NCBI GenBank assembly: GCA_034669905.1
Contig: JAXMOL010000004.1
Span: 32,001-96,000, forward strand
Origin: Candidatus Hydrogenedentota bacterium
Lineage (GTDB): Bacteria > Hydrogenedentota > Hydrogenedentia > Hydrogenedentales > JAEUWI01
Direction of reading: 5' to 3'
DNA: 64,000 nt
The notes under the pieces were generated by a model. The model made no database searches. It was not told the origin of the DNA and saw only the letters and a program-made list of their open reading frames with translations. Positions 47,190-59,289 of this stretch are shown in pieces (the first letter of the stretch is position 1; each line of letters starts with the position of its first letter). The position numbers and the translations under genes were made by a program.

Positions 47190-49076
47190 ATGTCCCGTGA
47201 TTCCCGTATTTTCTACCTCCTACTTCTACTCGCCTTCACCGTATTTGCCGCCAATATCGGTGGCTATGATGTGTGGCCACCCGATGAGCCCCGTTATACC
47301 GAGGTGGCACGGGAGATGGTGGAAAGCGGCGACTACCTGGTGCCCCGTGTAAATGGTGAGGTCTATTTCGAAAAGCCGCCCATGTTGTTCTGGCTCATGG
47401 CCCTGGCTTCCGTGCCGTTCGGAGAGGTCAATGAGGTGGCCGCCCGGCTACCCTCGGTCCTTTGTGCCGTCTATATTGTCGGCCTGACCTATGCCTTGGC
47501 GGCACGACTTTTCACCCGCCAGGTAGCCATCTGGGCAGCCCTCTTGCTCATTACCTGCTTTCGCTTCTGGTACCAGGCCCGCAAAGGGCAGATTGATATG
47601 GTGCTCACGGCAGAGATGCTCACGACCCTCTATGCCTTCTGGCGCTGGGATGAATCGCGTCATACGAAGTGGCTCTTCCTCGCCTATGGGGGTGTCGCGC
47701 TGGGACTCCTCACGAAGGGGCCACCGGCCCTGGTGTTCCCCGGCCTTTTTCTCATCGCCTACTATTGGGGCAACCGGGAGGGACGGGCCTCGACCCGCTG
47801 GGTGTGGGGCTTCCTCGGAGCCATCGCGGTGGTCGCCTTATGGTATGTGCCCGCCCGTATGGCGGGCGCCGATACGGCCGCAGAGGCGGTCCAGAGTGGG
47901 ATGGGTTCCAACCTTTTTCGCAACACCATTGGCCGTGCGCTCATGGGCGTCAGCAAGGCCCAGCCACCGTGGTATTACCTCAAGACCCTGCCGGTGGACA
48001 TGCTCCCCTGGAGCTTTATCTGTCCGCCCATACTGTATTGGGCGTGGAAAGGGCGCAAAGACAACCAGGCCATGCGCTTTCTCTGGGCATGGATCGGGCC
48101 CGCCCTCATCTTTTTCAGCGTCATTATCGGTAAGCGGGAACTCTACCTGTTACCCCTCTTTCCCGTCTTTGGGATTTTGTTCGCGGCCGCCATTGTACAT
48201 CTCAAGGAAACAGAGAATTACCGTTGGATGCGGCGTGGGGGGATGGCGTGGTCCGTCGTGCTGATAGCACTGGGATTTTCCCCCCTCGCACTGCCCTACA
48301 TCCCCTATACATTGGAGTCCAACCTCCATCTATACATCGTGGCCGGCGTGGCCCTGGTGGCGGGTAACGCGGGACTGTTCTACCTTCGAAAATCCTCAGG
48401 GAGCGTCGTTCCGGCGACCTTGGCAACGCAAACAATACTCGTATTTACCGTCGCGGTATTTACCGTGTTCCCGGAGATTGATACCTTTAAGTCTGCCCGA
48501 GACATCTGCGCACCGGTACGGCAATTGGTGGAGGAGGGAGAAGACCCAACCATCTATTCAGCCGGGTTCTCTCGGGAAGAATACGTGTATTATTCTCGCC
48601 ACTTTCATGAACCCGTATTCACCGGGCTCATCGGCGACATTCACCCGGACAATCTGCTGGAGCAAGCCAAGCTGCAAAAGAAAGCCCAGCGACTCATTCA
48701 GCGGGCGGTTGAAGACGTTCCACTTGCCGACCTGGCCCAACCTACCGAGTCAGAACGGAAGGCCCTTCGGGCGGCCATCGACGCTGCCGTGGCGGAGTCT
48801 GACGAGATAGAGGCCATCGTCCATTTCGAAGATGAACTGCGTGTGGAAGTCAACGCCTTCTTTGCCAAGCTGGCTGCGGAATCGCCGGTGTTGTGTTTCG
48901 TCCAGGAAGAAGATTGGCGCTGGCTGCTCGCCTTCCTCGAAGGAGAACAGCCAACGTCCATCATCACGGAACAGGGGGTCGGCAGTCGTCACGTACTCTT
49001 ACTGGCCAATGACGCTGCCGTGGAAGCCCTTAAGACAGCCAATTCAGAATCATCGAAATTACCGTCGGGCCGGTAA
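47190..49076 (+). CDS. ArnT-family (GT83) membrane glycosyltransferase
   Basis: DEPRY, EKPP, ARLPS, DM, LTKGP, PWYY, KRELYLLP; many TM helices. Confidence 0.85.
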   Translation: MSRDSRIFYLLLLLAFTVFAANIGGYDVWPPDEPRYTEVAREMVESGDYLVPRVNGEVYFEKPPMLFWLMALASVPFGEVNEVAARLPSVLCAVYIVGLTYALAARLFTRQVAIWAALLLITCFRFWYQARKGQIDMVLTAEMLTTLYAFWRWDESRHTKWLFLAYGGVALGLLTKGPPALVFPGLFLIAYYWGNREGRASTRWVWGFLGAIAVVALWYVPARMAGADTAAEAVQSGMGSNLFRNTIGRALMGVSKAQPPWYYLKTLPVDMLPWSFICPPILYWAWKGRKDNQAMRFLWAWIGPALIFFSVIIGKRELYLLPLFPVFGILFAAAIVHLKETENYRWMRRGGMAWSVVLIALGFSPLALPYIPYTLESNLHLYIVAGVALVAGNAGLFYLRKSSGSVVPATLATQTILVFTVAVFTVFPEIDTFKSARDICAPVRQLVEEGEDPTIYSAGFSREEYVYYSRHFHEPVFTGLIGDIHPDNLLEQAKLQKKAQRLIQRAVEDVPLADLAQPTESERKALRAAIDAAVAESDEIEAIVHFEDELRVEVNAFFAKLAAESPVLCFVQEEDWRWLLAFLEGEQPTSIITEQGVGSRHVLLLANDAAVEALKTANSESSKLPSGR

Positions 49077-50454
49077 TGACCACCAGGAGGCCCGCAGCGA
49101 CACTGGTGACACCGCCCACGAGGAGCATATCCCGGTTCTCGATCTGCCCCGTGCCATAGGCAATGGCGTTGGGCGGGGTCGAGATGGGCAGCCCCATGGC
49201 AAAACTCGCCATGATGGCACACATGGCCGCGAGCACCTGGGTCTCTACGGTGGAGCTCCCCAGGCTGACCGCCATAGCGATGCCGATAGGCAATAAAATC
49301 ATGGTGGCAACACTATTGCTGATCACGGTGCTCATGGCCACAGCCAACACGCTGATGAGGGCCGCCAGACCGAAGAAGCCCAACCCTTCGCCGGGGAGTA
49401 CTTTCACGATCCAGGTGTCCAGTCCCGTGGACGTGATACCGTCCCCGAGGGCGATACCACCGGCAATGAGCATGAGGATATTCCAATCCAGGCGATTAAA
49501 GTCCTCTTTGGAAATCACCTGGGTAAGCGTCAGTACCGCGGCAGGTAAGATGGCCACCACGGCAGTGGGGACCCCGTGCCAGGACCCCGTGAGCCACAGG
49601 AGCACGGTCACCGCGAAGGTGGAGTAGACTACCGTGGCGTGTGCCGTCAGTTTGAAATCCTGCTCTACTTTCACCTCAAAGCGATCGCTACGCGGGTGAA
49701 ACAGTGTCAGGAGAAAGGCCCACATCACCGTCAAGGCGACCAGCATAAGCGGAAAGGCGAATGCCATCCACGTAAAGAAACTGATGCCAATACCGGCGTC
49801 TTCCAGTTGGGCCATGGCTATCGCGTTGGGAGGCGTGCCGATGGGGGTGCCAATACCGCCGATATTGGCGGCAAAGGGTACGGCCAGAATCAAGGCCTTC
49901 CGGAAGCGGTCACGGGCTTCTAAACGACTCAGAAAGGGTTGCACCATCACAATCATCATGGCCGTCGTCGCTGTATTGCTCATCCACATGCTGAAAATGG
50001 CGGTAATCAGCATGATCCCCCCGAGCACGGCCCAGGGTCGGGTCCCGAAGGCGCGGAGCAACAGGGCCGCCATCTGGACGTCAATCCGTTCTTTCTGCAC
50101 CGACTTGGCCAGAATGAATCCCCCCAGGAAAAGAAATATCACCGGGTTACTCAGGCTATTGAAAACGGTCTTGTATTCCATGGTCATGCCGAGGTCTTTC
50201 GGCACGGCCACCCACCAGGCCTCCAGGGCGATGACACAGAGACTGGTTGCAAAGAGGGGGATGGCTTCCGTTATCCAGAGGACGACCGCACCGGCAAATA
50301 TAGCCGCCATCCGCCGGGCACCTTCATCCATATCTTCTGGCATAAGCCAGTAACTCAGGGCCCCCGTCAACAGGGATAGGCCGCCCAGTGCCAGGTTCAC
50401 CCATACCGGGCGCAAGGTTGTTTCCACCTCTTCATTGGTTACTTCGTCACTCAT
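49030..50454 (-). CDS. DASS/SLC13 sodium-coupled anion symporter
   Basis: WITEAIP, SMWMSNTAT, GTPIGTPPN, SNSVA, PISTPPNAI. Confidence 0.9.
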   Translation of the reverse strand: MSDEVTNEEVETTLRPVWVNLALGGLSLLTGALSYWLMPEDMDEGARRMAAIFAGAVVLWITEAIPLFATSLCVIALEAWWVAVPKDLGMTMEYKTVFNSLSNPVIFLFLGGFILAKSVQKERIDVQMAALLLRAFGTRPWAVLGGIMLITAIFSMWMSNTATTAMMIVMVQPFLSRLEARDRFRKALILAVPFAANIGGIGTPIGTPPNAIAMAQLEDAGIGISFFTWMAFAFPLMLVALTVMWAFLLTLFHPRSDRFEVKVEQDFKLTAHATVVYSTFAVTVLLWLTGSWHGVPTAVVAILPAAVLTLTQVISKEDFNRLDWNILMLIAGGIALGDGITSTGLDTWIVKVLPGEGLGFFGLAALISVLAVAMSTVISNSVATMILLPIGIAMAVSLGSSTVETQVLAAMCAIMASFAMGLPISTPPNAIAYGTGQIENRDMLLVGGVTSVAAGLLVVITGPTVISMILNWLS

Positions 50455-50696
50455 GGTCCACTACTTTCTGTTGCGGGGGAGATTCACGTCCCCAATCGTG
50501 CTACACAACCGAGCGTGCAGGCATTGAGAACGACAGAGCATATTCTATGCCTGTTACGGGCTTCAACGTGTTTTTCCACTTCGCACCACCCCAAATACCC
50601 TGTAATGGCGACCGGCCTCCGCGAACGACGGGGGAGCGGGTAGCTGGTAACCGGTCATTACACAATCGCATCATGCGCAGATCTGGTCTTCGTGAT

Positions 50697-50708
50697 ACAC
50701 TAGTGTGC
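50697..50708. promoter_or_regulatory. Candidate enhancer (UAS) ACACTAGTGTGC, copy 1
   Basis: Contains the 10-bp perfect palindrome ACACTAGTGT; about 120 bp upstream of the predicted sigma54 start site; identical 12-mer at 58271. Confidence 0.55.
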
Positions 50709-50796
50709 AGTCCGGTCCTGCGCACCCAAGGGGAGCGCAAGTGTATTTGCGCCCATTATACGGGACGATAAACATGCCATGTCACAATTGTGCAAA

Positions 50797-50812
50797 TGGT
50801 ATGGGTCTTGCA
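50797..50812 (+). promoter_or_regulatory. Sigma54 (-24/-12) promoter of the kinase-activator operon
   Basis: TGGTATGGGTCTTGCA: GG-N10-GC with TTGCA. Confidence 0.6.
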
Positions 50813-50863
50813 TAAGTGACAGGCAGTAGAGTCCTACACCCCAACCCCACGAGGCCCACCGCG

Positions 50864-52423
50864 ATGTCGAACGACCCGGTTGAAGACATTCTCTTATCCA
50901 TGTCACTGCAAAAAGCCAGTGATGTGTGGGTCCGTGGTCTGGTTGAGAGCACGGTGGATGCCATTATCACGATCGACGAAGAGGCGACCATCCTGGAGGC
51001 GAACCTGGCCGCCCAACGAATGTTTGGCTACACCCGCAGTGAATTGCTTGGGGAGAATGTTCGTCTGCTGACGCCCCCCCATATTGCCCGCAACCACGAT
51101 ACGTACATCACCAACTATCTGGAAAGCGGTGTCCGCCGAATCATTGGAATCGGGCGCGAAGTGATGGCCCAACACAAGAATGGCACCGAGATCCCGGTAC
51201 ACCTTTCCATCAGCGAAGTGCGCATTGAAGGGCACCGGTACTTTTCCGGCATGCTGCGGGACATGACGGTTGAATTTGAGGCCCGTAAGGAGCAGGAGCG
51301 CTTGCTGGGCGAACTCAAAGAGCGCAACAAAAAGATCACCTGCCTCTACAGCGTGGGGGAGCTCATCCGGGAACAGGAAATCGCAACCGATTTGTTTCGC
51401 TCGGTCGCCCAGGTAGTGCGGCCGGCCTGCACCTTCCCCGAGATTACCCGGGCACGCATTCTCTTCGATGGGCAAGTCTATGAGGAAATGAGCGTCATAG
51501 AGACCCCCTGGGTTTGCAGTGCCCCCATCATCGTCGGTGGACGCAATCGAGGGTCATTGGAGTTGGTCTACCGGGAGGCCATTGAGCCCGTTGTACCCGG
51601 AAATCTTCTCCGGGAAGACGCGACCATGATTGAAGCCATCGCGCGGACGCTGGGTGAAGCGGTTGAGCGGCGGGAGGCTGAGGCCCAGGTTATACAGGCC
51701 TCCAAGCTGGCCTCGATTGGGGAATTAGCGGCCGGAGTGGGGCACGAGATCAATAATCCAATCAATGGGGTCATCAACTGCGTGGACATCCTCCTGGGGA
51801 ATCTCCCAGCGGATGCGCCGGATCGACAGTTTGCGGAGTTGATACGTTCAGAGGCCGAGCGGGTGGCGACCATTGTAAAAAACCTGTTGACCTTTTCCCG
51901 CCAGCAATACGAGCACTACTCCTATGCGAGTATGGCCGATATGGTCGATACGGTGCTCTCGCTGAGTGCCAAAAAAATGGAAAAGTCTTTCATCGACTTC
52001 GACGTCTTCGTACCCGAGGGTCTGCCCCGCATACGATGTCGGCCCGAGCAATTGGAACAGGTCCTGATGAATCTTATCATCAATGCCATCCATTCACTGG
52101 ATGAACGTTATCCGGCCGCCGCGCCAGAAAAGAAACTGTCTATCAGCGTTGAGTCGGCCACCGTACGCCAACGCAAGCACCTTGTGATGGTGGTGGAAGA
52201 CCAGGGCTGCGGGATGTCCGAATCAACCCTCCAACGAATTTTTGATCCTTTTTTCACCACCAAAGGCCGTGACAAGGGAACGGGCCTGGGGCTGTCGGTA
52301 TCCGATGGAATCGTGAAAGATCATGGTGGCTTTTTTGAAGTTACCAGTGAGCCGAATCGGTTTACCTGCTTCAAGGTCTATCTCCCTGTAGATGGCCCCG
52401 TCAAGTCAGGTACCCGCCGATAA
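50864..52423 (+). CDS. FixL-like heme-PAS sensor histidine kinase (NtrB-type transmitter)
   Basis: PAS with HDTYITNY and RIIGIGREV; degenerate GAF-like region; [24 protein letters not shown]; no TM helix. Confidence 0.85.
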
Positions 52424-52438
52424 TTCAGGGAGCGTGTC

Positions 52439-54208
52439 ATGCGTACCATATTAATCGTAGAAGACGAAGCTGTTTTACGCCTTACATTTGCCCGTTTCCT
52501 GGAAGAAGCGGGTTATGCCGTGGAATCTGCCGAAAACTATGACGACGCGGTCGCTTTCGTCGAACGCAATCACTTTGATGTAGTCGTCACCGACATCGTC
52601 CTCGGTGGTGAGACCGGCATCGATATCTTGCGTCACATTCGGGAAAAGTCCCCCGAAACGATGGTCATCATGATCACGGGAGAGCCCAGCGTGGAAACGG
52701 CCACGGAGGCGGTGCGGCTTGGTGCCTTCGACTATCTCTCCAAGCCGGTAACCGGGGAAGCGCTGAAACGGGTCGTACGCATGGCGGTTGACCGGGCCGG
52801 TCTCCTGGCAGAACGGGACGATTACGCCGCACGAATGGACGCCTATCGGCGGGAACTGGAGGCCCTCTTTCACGCGGTTAAAGAGGGGATCATCACCGTG
52901 GATGCAAATGGGAAGGTACGCCAGATAAATGCGGCGGCCGCCCAGATGCTTGGTGAGGACGTGCGCGAAATGGCCGGCACGTCGGCGGAGACACTTTTCT
53001 CGGGGCCCCTTCGAAAAGCCTACGACGCATTGCAGCGCACCCTGGAAACCCGCAATGAAGTGGAGGAATTCCACGTAGAAGCCACCCTGCCCCGCAGTGG
53101 GGAAAAGAGCTTTACCATGTCGACCACACCGTTGGATACCGGGGGAAAGGCGGCGGGCGGGGCCGTGTTGGTACTACGGGATTTGACCCGTATCAGCCGG
53201 CTCGAAAAGCAACTCGCGTCCACCCATCAGTATCAGAATATGGTGGGCAAATCTTCCCGTATGGCGGAAGTCTTCAATTTGATAGAGAACGTGGCGGAAA
53301 CGGATTCCACCGTACTCATCTATGGCGAAAGTGGCACCGGTAAAGAATTGGTAGCGGCGGCGCTCCACTATACGAGTCACCGCTCCAATGGTCCCTTTAT
53401 CAAGGTAAACTGTGCCGCCCTCGCCGAAGATATTCTGGAGAGCGAGCTTTTCGGCCATGTGAAAGGCTCCTTCACCGGCGCAGTCCGGGACCGGGTGGGA
53501 CGCTTTGAAGCCGCTAATGGGGGTACCATTCTCCTCGACGAGATCGGTGATATTTCCCCCCGACTTCAGTTGCGGCTGCTTCGTGTGCTCCAGGAGCGCG
53601 AATTCGAACGGGTAGGGGATACGCGACCGATCCAGGTGGACGTCCGTATTGTCGCCTCGACCAATCAGAATCTGGTTCAGAAGATTGAGGAAAATACTTT
53701 TCGGGAAGATCTCTACTACCGGCTGAACGTCGTCCGGATTGAACTGCCCGCGCTACGAGAACGGCGTGCGGACATTCCCCTGTTGATCGATCACCTGTGT
53801 AAGAAGTTCAATACAATCTTCAAGAAAGACATTGTTGGCCTCTCCTCCCAGGCACTGGAAATGCTGATGCACTATCCCTGGTTCGGCAATGTTCGGGAAC
53901 TGGAGAATTGCCTGGAGCGTTCCTTCATCGTATGCCACGATACTGTCATCCTGCCTGAACATCTCCCGCCAGAAATTGCGAAGCGCCCCCAACGTGCCAT
54001 GGCCCATACGCCGAGTCCCCACGATGCAGAGGCCGCGGTGGGCTATGCCCGACAGGAAGACGGCGAACGCATGCGCGTACTGGAAGCCCTGGAACGAACC
54101 GATTGGAATGTGGCCAAGAGCGCCCGCATTCTCGGCGTAGCGCGAAATACCCTCTATCAGCGCATTCGAACCTTCAAGCTAACCCGTCCCAACGGCAAGG
54201 GCTTCTAA
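52439..54208 (+). CDS. Sigma54-dependent response regulator (REC-PAS-AAA+-HTH)
   Basis: REC, PAS, GESGTGKE, ESELFGHVKGSFTGA, LLDEIGD, FREDLYYRL, WFGNVREL, Fis-type HTH. Confidence 0.92.
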   Translation: MRTILIVEDEAVLRLTFARFLEEAGYAVESAENYDDAVAFVERNHFDVVVTDIVLGGETGIDILRHIREKSPETMVIMITGEPSVETATEAVRLGAFDYLSKPVTGEALKRVVRMAVDRAGLLAERDDYAARMDAYRRELEALFHAVKEGIITVDANGKVRQINAAAAQMLGEDVREMAGTSAETLFSGPLRKAYDALQRTLETRNEVEEFHVEATLPRSGEKSFTMSTTPLDTGGKAAGGAVLVLRDLTRISRLEKQLASTHQYQNMVGKSSRMAEVFNLIENVAETDSTVLIYGESGTGKELVAAALHYTSHRSNGPFIKVNCAALAEDILESELFGHVKGSFTGAVRDRVGRFEAANGGTILLDEIGDISPRLQLRLLRVLQEREFERVGDTRPIQVDVRIVASTNQNLVQKIEENTFREDLYYRLNVVRIELPALRERRADIPLLIDHLCKKFNTIFKKDIVGLSSQALEMLMHYPWFGNVRELENCLERSFIVCHDTVILPEHLPPEIAKRPQRAMAHTPSPHDAEAAVGYARQEDGERMRVLEALERTDWNVAKSARILGVARNTLYQRIRTFKLTRPNGKGF

Positions 54209-54293
54209 GGTCTTTGCGCCTTCTTTGCAGCCTGTGTTAGGGTCTCCTCCGGTTTACGTTTCGCCCAAGGGCTTCACGACGGAGAGAGCACCT

Positions 54294-55259
54294 ATGAAGA
54301 CAAGCACCGGTATCTGGAAAACTACCCTCGCCCTCGTTGCGCTGGTGGCTGGCCTCGTTGCCTCAGCTGCGACCGCGGCCGAAAAGGCCCCAATACGTCA
54401 GGAGAGTGCCACCGGTATCCGCCACTCCCTCCTGATTACAGGGTCGACCGGTACCTACCTCTTCGATGAATCCAGCGCGCTGGTGTGGGAGACGCCGGGG
54501 TATTCCCGGGATGGATACGTGCTGGAAAACGGGAATATTCTCCTCTCGATCGACGACACAGCCCGGGAGTATGAAAAGGGGACACAAACGGTTGTCTGGT
54601 CCTATGCCCTGGATCCGGTGAATAAGGAATTGGGTACCGTTTATCGGCTCGACAATGGGCATACCCTTGTGGTGGAGCGGGGGAGCAAACCCCGAATTCT
54701 CGAAGTAACGACAGACGGCGCCATTGCCGTCGAAGTCCCGCTGCAGCCAGACACCGACAATGACCATATGCAGACTCGGATGGCCCGTAAGCTCCCCAAC
54801 GGTAATTACCTGGCACCGCACCTGCTGGCCTTCAAAGTGAAAGAATACACGCCAGAAGGCAAGGTCGTCCGGGAAATTCCAACAGACCTGCCCCTCTTTG
54901 GCAACCGGGACGACCACTCATGGCCTTTTACGGCCATTCTGCTGCCCAACGGCAATATCCACGCGAACCTGACCCACGGGAATCGGGTGGCCGAGTTCGG
55001 GCCGGATAATGAAGTCGTCTGGTATCTCGACAACAGCCACGTTGGTGGGCGACTCAGCGACCCCTGTGGAGGACAACGGATGCCCAACAACAACATGGTC
55101 ATCTGCAGCTACGCCCAGAAAGATCCGGCCATGCCAAAGGTCTTTGAAGTCACGCGTGATAAAGAAGTGGTCTGGGAGTTTTTCCACCCCACGGCACGTG
55201 CCCATGAGGTGCATATCATCACCACCGATGGCGAACGGGTGACTCCCCTGATGCGCTAG
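54294..55259 (+). CDS. Exported beta-propeller protein (arylsulfotransferase/PQQ-repeat-like)
   Basis: Signal peptide; repeated LxNGNxL and E.....G.VVW units. Confidence 0.6.
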
Positions 55260-58006
55260 TCGTTCAGCTCCAACACCACTTCCGTCGGCTCTCCAATAGA
55301 TTTCTGTAATTTGAAGCCTATCTTCTGGCATACGTGCAGCATGGAGCGGTTGTCGGCCAGGACGGTTCCCGTGATCCGTTGGAGCCCTTCGGCCCGCCCC
55401 ACATCCACGAGACGCTGGAGTAATTCGGAGCCCACGCCGTGCCCCTGCAACTCATCACTGACCACAATGGCGAATTCGCCATCGCCCCGACCATACTCTT
55501 TCATCAGGCGCCCCACGGCCACGATTTCAGAGACGTCGGTCGATTCGTTGTACCGCACGACGACGAGGGCGATTTGGCGATCATAGTCGATGAAGCAGAG
55601 GCGGGTGAGTCGCTCGTGGCTGACCCGCTGATCCAGGGATATCAATCCCAGGTAGCGGGAGTAGACCGTATCCGCGGACAAGGTCTTGTGAAAGTCCACC
55701 ATGAGGGGCTCATCTTCTGAGCGAATGGGGCGAATGTGGACCTTTTCTCCCTTTTTCGTTTCCCAATCCCCGCTGTATTCCAGGGGATAGGGACGTATGG
55801 CCAGCCGCGGCAGATCGGCTTCCTTCACATCGGGCTCATGGAGGAGTACCCGACCATCCAACGCAACCAATCCCATGGGCGATGCGAGGAGGGGGTTGAT
55901 GTCGATCTCTTTGATCCAAGGCTGCTCAACAACCAGCTTGCTGAAACGTACGAGCAGGAGCTCAAGGGCGTTCAGATCAACCGGGTCCCGTCCCCGAACC
56001 CCTTTCAGCGCGGTGTATATCCTGGTCTGTTCCATCATGCGCCGGGCAAGCGTCGTATTCAATGGCGGAAGTCCCAGGGCACTGTCTTTAAAGACTTCGA
56101 CCAATTCACCGCCGGCACCAAAGAGCAGTACGGGGCCGAATTGGGCATCGATGCTGCTCCCGATGATGATTTCGTAGCCTTCATGGCGCACCATGGGCTG
56201 CACGACCACGCCCTCGAAGTGCGCCGCGCCGGCCTTCTCGGTGACACCTTTCTGTATGCTCTCGAAGGCGCCAGAGACGGTCTTGGCCGATTTCAGATTC
56301 AACTGGACGCCACCCACATCAGTCTTATGGGTAATGGTGTTGGAATAGAGTTTCAGCACCACCGGATAACCCATCTCTTCGGCAATGGCTACCGCTTCTT
56401 CCGCACTGGTTGCGACTTCGGTCTTCACGACCGGAATGCCATACGCTTTCAGAATCTTCTTCGATTCGTGTTCGGGCAAGGTGGTATGACCGGCGTCACG
56501 GGCGTTCTTGATGAGTTCCGCAACCAAGGCCCGATCGGGGCCCTTTTCGTCCTCATCGGGCGGGAGCAGGGGCGTCTCGTAGAGCCCACGGAGGTTATAG
56601 TTGTAGCGCCACATCAGGTTAAAGACCCGGGCGGCGGCATCGGGATAATCAAACGTGGGGATGTCGTGCTCGTTCAATATGGCATCACCAGCTTCCACGT
56701 CGGCTCCACCCATCCAACTGGCCAGCACGGGTTTCTTTGTCGGCATCTGGACCTTTACCAGTTCCTCGGCCGTTTTGGTGGGATCGGTCATGGCCTGGGG
56801 CGTAAGTACCACCAACAGGCCATCACTATTGGGGTCCTGGGCGGCTATTTCCAGGGCCTGGGCGTAGCGTTTCGGATCGGCATCCCCCAGGATGTCGATG
56901 GGGTTTCCGTGGCTCCAGGCCCCCGGAAGGACGGCATCAAGTTTTGCGATCGTATCTTCCGACAACTGCGCCAGTTCGCCACCATCGCCGATAACGGCGT
57001 CGGTAGCCAATACACCGGGTCCCCCCGCGTTGGTGAGAATCGTCAGGCGTGGCCCACGGGGACGGGGCTGCTTCTCGAGCACTTCGGCCATGTGAAAGAG
57101 GTTATCAATGCTGTACACCCGAGAGACACCGCTCCGTCTGAAAGCGGCGGAGAGGACCCCGTCACTTCCCGCCAACGACCCGGTGTGGGAGGCAGCTGCC
57201 TGCGCTGCAGCTTCGGTCTGGCCAGCCTTTATGACAATAATGGGCTTGGTGAGGGCCACTTCCCGGGCCGCCGAGAGAAAGGAACGGGCATTGCCGATGG
57301 ACTCCATATAGATCACAATGCTCTTGGTATGCGGATCGTCTCCGAGGTAGTGGATGAGGTCGCCCCAATCCACATCCAGCATGGAACCAATCGAAACGAA
57401 AGCACTGAAGCCCACGTTCGTCTGGTGGCTCCAGTCGAGAATTGAGGTGCACAGGGCACCACTCTGACTGATAAAGCCGACGCTGCCGGGACGGGCAATG
57501 GTGCTGGCAAAGGTGGCGTTCATTCCGCTGATGGGGTTCATCACCCCGAGGCAGTTGGGCCCCACGATACGCATGTTGCCTTTTCGTGCCGCTTCGAGCA
57601 CCTCCGCCTCTAAGGCAATCCCCGCCTCTCCAACCTCCTTAAAGCCTGCCGAAATAATAATGGCACCCTTCACGCCGGAGGCGACACATTCCTGTACCAG
57701 TTGGGGGATAGATGCCGCAGGGGTCACCAGAATCGCGAGATCGATAGGCTCGGGAATCTCGGATACGGCGGGATAGGCCTTGATTCCCAACACATTGTTC
57801 CGGTTGGGGTTTACGGCATAGATCGTGGCGCCGAAGGGGTTGCTGATAAGGTTCCACAGTATCGTCCGGCCCACGCTACCCAGCTTTTCCGTCGCGCCGA
57901 TAAGCGCAACGGATCGCGGATTGAATATGGCGTCGATGGACCCGAAACGGTTGGAAGATCCAATTGGTACTCGATTTGAAGAAGATTCTTCCTGATGCTT
58001 CGGCAT
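55256..58006 (-). CDS. Acetate-CoA ligase (ADP-forming) family protein fused to GNAT acetyltransferase (Pat-like)
   Basis: [56 protein letters not shown]-terminal GNAT QGHGVG; GGGAG RBS before 58006. Confidence 0.9.
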
Positions 58007-58106
58007 GATGGTGCTTACTCCCGACGCGCTGTCATGATTTGCTGAATTGGAACACATTGATGCGTTCGTTTTGATACTATCACAGGATGTATGTTGAAGT
58101 GGAATG

Positions 58107-58123
58107 AGCAAGTAGAGTGCCAG
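58107..58123 (-). promoter_or_regulatory. Sigma54 (-24/-12) promoter of the ligase-GNAT gene
   Basis: Minus strand CTGGCACTCTACTTGCT, close to consensus YTGGCACG-N4-TTGCW. Confidence 0.8.
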
Positions 58124-58270
58124 TTTGTTGCGCGCTGCACACCCGTCCTGCCGCGCACGGAGTTATCGTATATAACAAGTTATAAACAAATATGTTACAA
58201 CTGCACCTCGCCCGCTGTTGCGCGCTACACGGCCCGGCCCGCTTCACAGATATGTTCAAGAAGAAATGCG

Positions 58271-58282
58271 ACACTAGTGTGC
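58271..58282. promoter_or_regulatory. Candidate enhancer (UAS) ACACTAGTGTGC, copy 2
   Basis: Identical to 50697-50708; about 180 bp upstream of the predicted start site, with an AT-rich tract in between. Confidence 0.55.
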
Positions 58283-58310
58283 GCTTAACCCCGATGGAGT
58301 CACTGCCTGG

Positions 58311-58925
58311 ATGAAAGTTATTGTCGTTCGCCATGGAGAAACCGACTACAACCGTGCCCGCCGTATGCAAGGCTACGGCGAAGTGCCACTCAACGACCGG
58401 GGAATCCGGCAGGCGGCCCAACTGGCCACGCATCTGGCCACCCAGGGCGTTGAACAAATCATCTGCAGCGACCTCCGCCGCACGGTCATGACGGGCTGCA
58501 TCATTGCATCACAGCTCAACGTGCACATCGAATACGACGCGGGACTACGGGAACGGGATCCGGGTGACTTCGTAGGGGCATCCTATGATGACGCACCGGG
58601 ATTCTTCAACGATCCCGATTTCGTCCCGCCCAACGGCGAAGGCGTGCCGGCCTTTCGGCAGCGGGTGCGCGAGACTTTTGCCAATATTAATGCCCGCTAC
58701 AGCGAAAGCACGGAGACCCTGCTCGTGGTAACCCATGGTCTGGTCTGTCATGCCTTTGTGGAGGAATTCTTTGGTCCCGCATTCAGTGCGGGGGTGGGGG
58801 CCGGGAACGGTACCCTGAGTATTGCCCGCGTGGTGGCGGGGGAGTGGCAACTGGAGAAAGCGACCTGCGATGCCCACCTGAGCGATAGGAGTGAGACGGT
58901 ACCGGGTGGTGCACAAGGTGCCTGA
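58311..58925 (+). CDS. Histidine phosphatase family protein
   Basis: VRHGET, SDLRR, LRE, PNGE, VTHG. Confidence 0.87.
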   Translation: MKVIVVRHGETDYNRARRMQGYGEVPLNDRGIRQAAQLATHLATQGVEQIICSDLRRTVMTGCIIASQLNVHIEYDAGLRERDPGDFVGASYDDAPGFFNDPDFVPPNGEGVPAFRQRVRETFANINARYSESTETLLVVTHGLVCHAFVEEFFGPAFSAGVGAGNGTLSIARVVAGEWQLEKATCDAHLSDRSETVPGGAQGA

Positions 58926-59007: not shown

Positions 59008-59289
59008 ATGAATCGGGAAGAATCTGAGAAAAAGTTAGCGGCGGCATTGGAACACGTCAGCCCGGCCCACTTGCGCAGCCGTGCGCTCGTTACCAAACGC
59101 CTTACGTTTCGCATGCATGAAGAAGAATTCGAGGAGATTCGACGTACAGCGGAATCGTTGGATTTGTCGATTTCTGACTACTTTTGCGCCCTTCACCACT
59201 ACGCGGCAGCTCGAATCGAGGGCATCGACCGGGGTGCCGATTGGGTCCACCGTAATCCACGTCACCGTGAAGATTCGACCGAAGACTAG
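59008..59289 (+). CDS. Small hypothetical protein, ribbon-helix-helix-like
   Basis: TKRLTFRMHEEEFEEIRRTAESLDLSISDY pattern; GGAGG RBS. Confidence 0.5.
   Translation: MNREESEKKLAAALEHVSPAHLRSRALVTKRLTFRMHEEEFEEIRRTAESLDLSISDYFCALHHYAAARIEGIDRGADWVHRNPRHREDSTED

Follow-up and report, generated by a model that had tools for sequence, protein, structure and literature searches.

A predicted low-oxygen regulon under a heme-PAS kinase and a sigma54 activator in Candidatus Hydrogenedentota

A 64,000-nucleotide window (the whole stretch of DNA analysed) from a Candidatus Hydrogenedentota bacterium encodes a soluble sensor kinase with a FixL-type heme-PAS domain, followed by a sigma54-dependent activator. 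The two genes are preceded by a -24/-12 promoter and by paired degenerate palindromes, and the same arrangement is found in front of genes for fermentation and anaerobic respiration elsewhere in the genome. An autoregulated heme-PAS/sigma54 switch controlling a convergent gene for an acyl-CoA ligase fused to a GNAT domain had been proposed earlier (the original prediction); conserved promoters and enhancer sites argue for the switch, and the regulon predicted from them is larger than the one then described. The source genome, labelled G000 (7.44 Mb, 95.7% complete), was compared with 40 relatives, for a panel of 41 genomes of the order; in the labels, G stands for genome, C for contig and L for locus.

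In the favoured mechanism, falling oxygen would be sensed by heme and oxygen binding to the kinase, whose deoxy form would be the active one, as in rhizobial FixL. Kinase His294 would phosphorylate Asp52 of the activator, which would bind tandem TGNNCA-N4-TGNNCA sites and so activate a set of genes for fermentation and anaerobic respiration, its own operon included. Putative targets in G000 are the kinase-activator operon, the ligase-GNAT gene, a DASS carrier, an rnfB-PFOR-rnfCDGEA-FNR operon, PEP carboxykinase and a cytochrome c-FeS-NrfD-multiheme operon; a MtrC/NapC-like cluster is a less sure one. Pyruvate would thus be turned into acetyl-CoA by PFOR and acetyl-CoA into acetate and ATP by the ligase, while Rnf would reoxidise the reduced ferredoxin. 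Domain layout, heme residues, -24/-12 boxes, enhancer sites and the co-occurrence of the sites with the activator are all established by sequence comparison. That a sigma54 regulon answers to the kinase-adjacent activator is very probable; oxygen sensed through heme is a likely main input, and the full model, a low-oxygen switch for fermentation, seems reasonably likely.

Promoters and enhancer sites

The -24/-12 promoters placed by the original prediction before the kinase operon and the convergent ligase gene are real and conserved in the genus. The kinase-activator box TGGTATGGGTCTTGCA (50797..50812, + strand, predicted start of transcription near 50823) and the ligase-GNAT box TGGCACTCTACTTGCT (58107..58122, - strand, predicted start near 58096) are the only matches in the window to TGGYAY-N5-TTGCW, 0.20 being expected and two being reached by 1 of 100 shuffles; the whole genome hosts 36. 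The GG-N10-GC core of the kinase box is retained in each of the 8 upstream regions that could be compared within the genus, that of G000 among them, and alignments of orthologous upstream regions show conserved -24 GG and -12 GC elements with a drifting spacer. A third conserved box, AGGCATAGAATATGCT (50537..50552, - strand), had been overlooked. It belongs to a divergent gene encoding a DASS-family anion symporter (49030..50454, - strand; TIGR00785, 286.9 bits, above cut-off). The sigma54 matrix used for scoring was built from the strict G000 matches and the boxes of the relatives.

Orthologous upstream alignments reveal a palindrome of 16 bp, degenerate in sequence (TGNNCA-N4-TGNNCA), which lies about 90-155 bp upstream and is usually paired at 15-25 bp. 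The original prediction had pointed to a 12-mer, ACACTAGTGTGC, shared by the two upstream regions. Its copies do exist, at 50697 and 58271, with no further copy in the genome, and both are on the + strand, hence in opposite orientations relative to their promoters. In the 40 relatives, neither the kinase nor the ligase loci showed the exact 10-mer core; 9 of these genomes have matches to it elsewhere, in G025 about 37 kb from the ligase homolog and otherwise on different contigs. The exact 12-mer was therefore rejected as operator, being absent from orthologous loci, and the role had been misassigned: the degenerate palindrome takes its place. The palindrome bearing ACACTAGTGTGC is the weaker copy at both promoters (9.9 vs 11.6 for the kinase, 6.0 vs 16.7 for the ligase).

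The kinase and DASS promoters have two sites in common, TGCGCA-GATC-TGGTCT (50674..50689, score 11.6) and GATACA-CTAG-TGTGCA (50694..50709), the copy scoring 9.9; the genus has tandem sites at matching distances. A third site, ATGTCA-CAAT-TGTGCA (50779..50794, score 10.7), adjoins the -24 element, and a site at -37 is found in G001, G002, G006 and G008; negative autoregulation through this site is possible. Upstream of the ligase lie TGAACA-TATC-TGTGAA (58243..58258, sequence on the - strand), the strongest, and the weaker site at 58268..58283. The enhancer matrix was trained on 25 sites of relatives, none from G000. When the 379 sigma54-like boxes of G000 are ranked by it, the ligase promoter takes first place, and those of the kinase and DASS genes share fourth. 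A 4-bp spacer scores 14.4, other spacers 4.5-9.0 and shuffles 2.3. The 5-bp spacer of Myxococcus NmpR, discussed below, does not fit, as 4-bp scores are 14.4 and 12.4 and 5-bp scores 6.4 and 5.5, with half-site matrices taken from the 4-bp frame.

Other features of these regions may be mentioned. The interval between enhancer and promoter of the ligase includes an AT-rich tract (58160..58200), seen in the sequence only, which we take to be a possible IHF bending site. The ligase promoter also hosts a direct repeat, TGTTGCGCGCT(G/A)CAC, at 58127-58142 and 58216-58230, about 89 bp apart, conservation of which is not evident in the upstream alignment. An rpoN gene, scoring above the family cut-off, is present in G000, and a strict sigma54 box (G000:C23:30709) precedes the rpoN match by about 70 bp.

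Predicted targets

Few genes combine box and site: of 3040 genes in G000 that have a long gap upstream, only 14 reach a box score of at least 7 together with a site score of at least 9. The DASS gene has both in 7/7 genomes examined. For rnfB and pck, which lie outside the training set, the combination follows the activator. It was found at rnfB in 12/12 activator-positive vs 0/5 activator-negative genomes (17 loci), and at pck in 8/14 vs 0/4, 2 of 20 loci having been dropped because the 5' end is missing. Ligase genes have it in 10/15 activator-positive vs 0/13 activator-negative genomes (29 loci, one dropped as too short; 7 of the positives are training sites); at the G004 ligase the automated pairing took a weaker box than that seen in the alignment.

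The rnfB-PFOR-rnfCDGEA-FNR operon of G000 (C45:45970-57209, L159), with a PFOR of 1624 amino acids, has a strong sigma54 box and an enhancer at -108. PFOR follows rnfB in 17/17 loci examined. PPDK and hyp genes lie beside this operon on the opposite strand. A second operon (C36:27915-32191, L160) encodes a cytochrome c, a 4Fe-4S protein, a NrfD/DsrP-like membrane subunit and a multiheme cytochrome, and is preceded by a box and two enhancer sites. A divergent cluster (C1:141397-150738, L239) encodes an OmcA/MtrC decaheme cytochrome, a NapC/NirT-like cytochrome and more multiheme proteins, a content that suggests extracellular electron transfer; it features an enhancer site and a weak sigma54 box, and a similar multiheme cluster in G035 (L233) has box and site. 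PEP carboxykinase sites are weak in G000 (C2) and strong in relatives.

The same promoter design precedes hemN (G029), the ribosome hibernation factor HPF (G011) and a USP gene (L019) in other lineages. In G035, the genes immediately after the activator are pta-ackA, which have a separate box and two sites; a ligase ortholog was not found there. No pta-ackA with box and site was seen in G029, G020 or G018, and pta-ackA genes are not clearly visible in the G037 stretch. In a named Hydrogenedentota metagenome-assembled genome (L019:6411-14536) the pair precedes two tandem-USP genes, more promoters with enhancer and box, a Rrf2 gene, a globin and a flavo-ferredoxin reductase.

Hydrogenedentota are described as widespread and predicted facultatively anaerobic in the accessible text of PMC11406978. 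Two heme-copper oxidases were identified in G000. An oxidase of this type is present in 19/19 activator genomes, and the activator in 0/9 oxidase-less genomes; 13/22 activator-negative genomes also carry the oxidase. A canonical FNR was not found in G000 with the query used: the single CRP/FNR-family protein above cut-off has Cys at 9, 88, 98 and 134 only, a pattern differing from what we take to be that of the FNR cluster. Low oxygen is the state in which the system is most likely active, by analogy with deoxy-FixL, because PFOR is oxygen-labile, HemN is oxygen-independent and sigma54 activators activate. The oxygen independence of HemN is mentioned in PMC11841059. A bolder proposal, which we regard as doubtful, is that in much of the oxidase-bearing Hydrogenedentota the pair is the master aerobic-to-anaerobic switch, replacing FNR/ArcA, and that its main target is bifunctional, its intact synthetase domain forming ATP from acetyl-CoA and its GNAT domain acetylating and silencing the AMP-forming Acs, so that no futile acetate cycle would arise.

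The sensor kinase and its partner

The kinase (50864..52423, + strand, 519 amino acids) most likely starts at ATG 50864, the form found in the protein collection. PAS, HisKA and HATPase domains are called in it; its layout includes a FixL-type heme-PAS (His78, Arg98), a GAF-like domain, a DHp domain (His294) and a catalytic domain, and a membrane segment is absent from the predicted model. The PAS string quoted by the original prediction is present, and its suggestion to align the domain with FixL has been borne out, FixL being the best PDB match (1d06, E 2.2e-26), followed by DosP. His78 aligns with the proximal His (Bj His200) and Arg98 with the distal Arg (Bj Arg220) of FixL, and the distal-pocket hydrophobic triad is kept, Ile93, Leu114 and Ile116 corresponding to Ile215, Leu236 and Ile238. 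The kinase scores 184.6 bits against the FixL family profile NF041777, whose cut-off is 850, and is therefore not a member of the FixL family, though it would work like FixL.

The GAF-like domain lies between PAS and DHp in the predicted model and is preceded by Cys160. In the structure atlas the leads for this middle domain are unnamed clusters (0.93-0.95) and GAF clusters (0.85-0.89); a fold search gave no identification for it, the matches being generic PAS/LOV kinases and the FixL PAS. A second FixL-type heme-PAS (HDGY...IIGTGR) is found in G000:C26:10778-14518, within a GAF/PAS hybrid kinase of 1246 amino acids.

The activator (52439..54208, + strand, 589 amino acids) has the layout given by the original prediction: REC (Asp52), PAS, AAA+ (GSFTGA) and a Fis-type HTH (ARNTLYQ), called as REC, PAS, Sigma54_activat and HTH_8. 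Asp52, the Walker A motif GESGTGKE and GSFTGA are intact, most orthologs having GAFTGA, and the recognition helix ARNTLY is identical in 13/13 orthologs read. No FixJ-type (REC-LuxR) partner was found, the next gene being the REC-PAS-AAA+-HTH activator in G000 and in all relatives with sufficient contig. The predicted complex of kinase and REC gives a weak pass, scoring 0.52 vs 0.01 for the best control, with contact agreement of at least 92% and partner pLDDT (predicted local confidence) of at least 85.

The kinase was found in 18/41 genomes and the activator in 19/41; orthologs may have been missed, since 36 and 32 candidates, respectively, were scored per genome. Kinase and activator genes lie side by side in every case where the contig is long enough, and the convergent ligase lies on the same stretch in G001, G004, G006, G008 and G011, and with its 3' end in G002, so that the synteny which the original prediction wished to see checked does extend to relatives. 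In G021 (L361) the activator is present and the upstream kinase is not intact. The nearest named relatives are Candidatus Hydrogenedentota. A metagenome search returned mostly generic kinases and, among 80 loci kept, one true ortholog (L272); no pair of heme-PAS-GAF kinase and activator from outside Hydrogenedentota was seen among the matches listed (20 loci checked). One homolog cluster carries the label 'FCB group bacterium'.

Alternative readings, known systems and neighbouring genes

Several observations weigh against the favoured model. Box and site fail at pck in 6/14 activator-positive genomes, G000 included (7.8, below the cut of 9), and five activator-positive genomes (G020, G021, G030, G036, G040) host a ligase homolog without such a promoter. 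The cytochrome-NrfD promoter is clear in 3/13 loci examined, a fourth having the site and a weak box, and hemN of G000 has neither box nor site nearby. The genomes are kin, the 12 rnfB positives coming from 3 families and 9 of them from one. One metatranscriptome (0.05 of the words) yielded 19 short contig pieces, most below 95% identity, too sparse for expression or start sites. In calibration, 5/78 solved complexes and 4/4 passing mismatches score 0.60 or less, and the kinase-receiver pair may pass through likeness to solved textbook pairs. G000 encodes 24 sigma54 activators, and the enhancer might belong to another of these, the adjacent pair being a mere neighbour or target. A further class of motif, TGTACA-N4-TGTACA with about 40 bp between copies, is also scored by the matrix and occurs in activator-negative genomes (G013, G014, G017, G025, G027, G037), and the half-sites are not unique, as Myxococcus NmpR uses the same ones (accessible text of PMC11841059). 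Against this, the sites track the kinase-adjacent activator across families, and also inside family f5, where rnfB is positive in G029 and G035 and negative in G018; they precede the kinase-activator operon itself in several families, and the recognition helix is invariant. An origin of the sites with another activator is thus a slim prospect. In G000 the TGTACA class lies before sigma54 boxes at C32:62551-62675, C3:119797, C15:76710, and C33:78958 and 81191; TGTACA-type sites of the C32-type hybrid kinase gene are also found in activator-negative G017. The matrix matches at C32:62675, C3:119797, C3:70598, C15:76710 and the C33 PEP-CTERM genes were not counted as targets, since the motif there probably belongs to another activator.

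The regulon may be real and yet have a main input other than oxygen at heme, the GAF-like domain with Cys160 sensing redox or a metabolite, or the heme reading NO or CO. Cys160 is invariant in 81/81 aligned homologs, and is kept in the three kinases of G020 (L112), G036 (L114) and G030 (L115), whose sequences begin with the GAF-like domain and lack the heme-PAS. At E <= 1e-15 a FixL-type PAS was not found elsewhere in these three genomes or in G021, and still G020 retains box and site at rnfB. In addition, the position of FixL Arg206 (Sm Arg200), a heme-propionate contact reported as important for signalling in the accessible text of PMC10765370, is Asn84 here, and Arg in 20/81 homologs. All these facts speak for a main input other than oxygen at the heme. 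On the other side, His78 and Arg98 are each found in 80/81 homologs, although the counts at His78, Arg98, Cys160 and the Arg206 position come from the 81 of 120 listed homologs that cover most of the PAS-GAF region, which was also the query and selects for PAS-bearing proteins. Moreover, loss of the PAS in G030 and G036 goes with GAFTTA in place of GAFTGA in the activator and with no pck or ligase site, and looks like decay or repurposing. This leaves two explanations, decay of the PAS-less systems or the existence of a second input; a main input other than oxygen is, on balance, unlikely.

Low oxygen would still be needed if the pathway ran in reverse, as an organic-acid assimilation regulon in which DASS would take up dicarboxylates, the ligase would activate acetate, PFOR would carry out reductive carboxylation driven by Rnf, and PEP carboxykinase would serve gluconeogenesis. 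DASS and pck are in the regulon, PPDK adjoins the rnf operon, and the enzymes concerned are generally reversible. However, an AMP-forming Acs is already available in G000 for acetate uptake, and searches for acetate kinase came up empty in G000 and in 14 further genomes of the family, so that the ligase is left to form acetate; the hemN, HPF, USP and multiheme cytochrome targets of relatives also fit hypoxia better than carbon source. Assimilation is accordingly given little credit. The ligase-GNAT (55256..58006, - strand, 916 amino acids), an ADP-forming acyl-CoA synthetase fused to GNAT, could in turn be mainly a protein acetyltransferase of the Pat/PatZ type, acetylating Acs and other enzymes. 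CoA-binding, ligase, ATP-grasp and GNAT domains are called in it, the order synthetase-then-GNAT is that of type I GNATs such as Pat/PatZ, GNAT Glu844 and motif A are intact, and a sirtuin accompanies Acs in G000. Among its full-length PDB matches the protein acetyltransferase 9it0 ranks first (E 1.4e-157), and its TIGR02717 score falls just below the cut-off (554.8 vs 567.15 bits). Yet the SHTG His is missing from 9it0, and it is kept in the ligase as His274, aligning with 4xyl, 2csu and 8wzu, along with His560 (HKTD), which aligns with HKSD of 8wzu. Two phospho-histidines define the mechanism of ADP-forming acetyl-CoA synthetases, and both motifs are found likewise in the Pyrococcus-type enzyme (accessible text of PMC4500148 for the mechanism); in type I and II Pat-type GNATs the synthetase domain is inactive and the catalytic His missing (accessible text of PMC8556138). 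Both histidines are found in 10/10 promoter-bearing copies, whereas the SHTG-type His is lost in 10/13 activator-negative ones, and pta-ackA occupies the slot in G035. A mainly acetylating enzyme is hence very unlikely. Of the two outputs named by the original prediction, acetate-linked ATP formation is better supported than protein acetylation, because both phospho-histidines are kept, acetate kinase was not found, PFOR and Rnf share the site, and pta-ackA takes the slot in G035. One activity does not preclude the other: with Acs and a sirtuin present and the GNAT motifs intact, the enzyme may also acetylate Acs. The fusion unites the catalytic histidines reported missing in Pat with an apparently intact GNAT, and may have retained ATP-forming activity.

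The premise of the original prediction that FixL signals through FixJ and not through sigma54 holds, but signalling from a heme kinase to sigma54 has already been published for NmpRSTU of Myxococcus xanthus. According to the accessible text of PMC11841059, a protoglobin kinase acts there through the relay NmpU-NmpS-NmpR on an NtrC-like activator binding GCGCA-N5-TGCGC, and the targets (cbb3 oxidase, hemerythrin, hemN, USP) serve oxygen scavenging. Both systems feature, on the present side by prediction, a heme-dependent soluble kinase, an NtrC-like sigma54 activator, autoregulation, hypoxia induction, tandem enhancers with GCGCA/TGCGC half-sites, and USP and hemN targets (same source). They differ in that the Nmp sensor is a protoglobin active with oxygen, with an inverting relay, whereas a single PAS-GAF kinase directly precedes the REC-PAS activator here, and no globin or hybrid kinase domain is among the domain calls at the locus; the 4-bp spacer sets the present site apart from that described for NmpR (5 bp), and PFOR, Rnf and acetate-linked ATP formation replace oxygen scavenging (PMC11841059). 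FixL of Bradyrhizobium and Sinorhizobium shares the heme-PAS proximal His, the distal Arg, the IIGIG loop, the distal-pocket Leu and Ile and, as predicted here, cytoplasmic oxygen-type sensing (accessible texts of PMC10765370 and PMC13327599). The present kinase differs from it in the extra GAF-like domain and the Asn at the Arg206 position, and in having a sigma54 AAA+ activator as partner in place of FixJ; a FixK step was not seen. FlrB-FlrC of Vibrio cholerae is also a soluble PAS kinase phosphorylating a sigma54 activator (phosphorylation is predicted here), and heme binding by FlrB has been claimed (PMC12607845; bioRxiv 10.1101/2023.06.29.547052). It is a weaker precedent because heme control is unsupported in vivo: the FlrB PAS has no F-alpha and G-beta heme elements, heme does not modulate FlrB in vivo, and the targets are flagellar (PMC12607845).

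Three things appear to be new: the family in which a PAS-GAF kinase is paired with a REC-PAS activator, its 16-bp site, and a regulon made up of genes central to fermentation. FNR/ArcAB-type anaerobic regulons include fermentation, anaerobic respiration and hemN targets, with other sensor chemistry and another sigma factor. No description of this sensor-target set was found in the literature covered, which included few subscription papers and no supplements, and no paper linking Hydrogenedentota to FixL, or on their oxygen sensing, was found in the accessible literature. Heme-kinase-to-sigma54 signalling would be widened from oxygen scavenging in Myxococcus to core fermentation. Sensor, activator, DNA site and target list are testable in E. 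coli or in vitro without culture, and the 16-bp site could mark low-oxygen-induced genes in metagenome-assembled genomes of Hydrogenedentota.

A predicted exported beta-propeller-like protein (54294..55259, + strand; weak PF22701 and PF14269 matches) is encoded between activator and ligase; it was not found at this locus in G003, G011 and G022, and probably does not belong to the core system. The end of the activator gene carries a terminator-like hairpin (54195..54217, + strand), a consensus match only, as 10 were found vs 9.2 in shuffles. A gene of the histidine phosphatase family (58311-58925, + strand), divergent from the ligase, is syntenic in the genus and in G011; it was rejected as a regulon target, a sigma54 box being absent in 9/9 genomes examined. 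The ligase enhancer sites sit just ahead of its start. Further on, a small ribbon-helix-helix-like gene (59008-59289, + strand; weak NikA-like Pfam match) precedes an OPT transporter, and is kept in several genomes of the genus.

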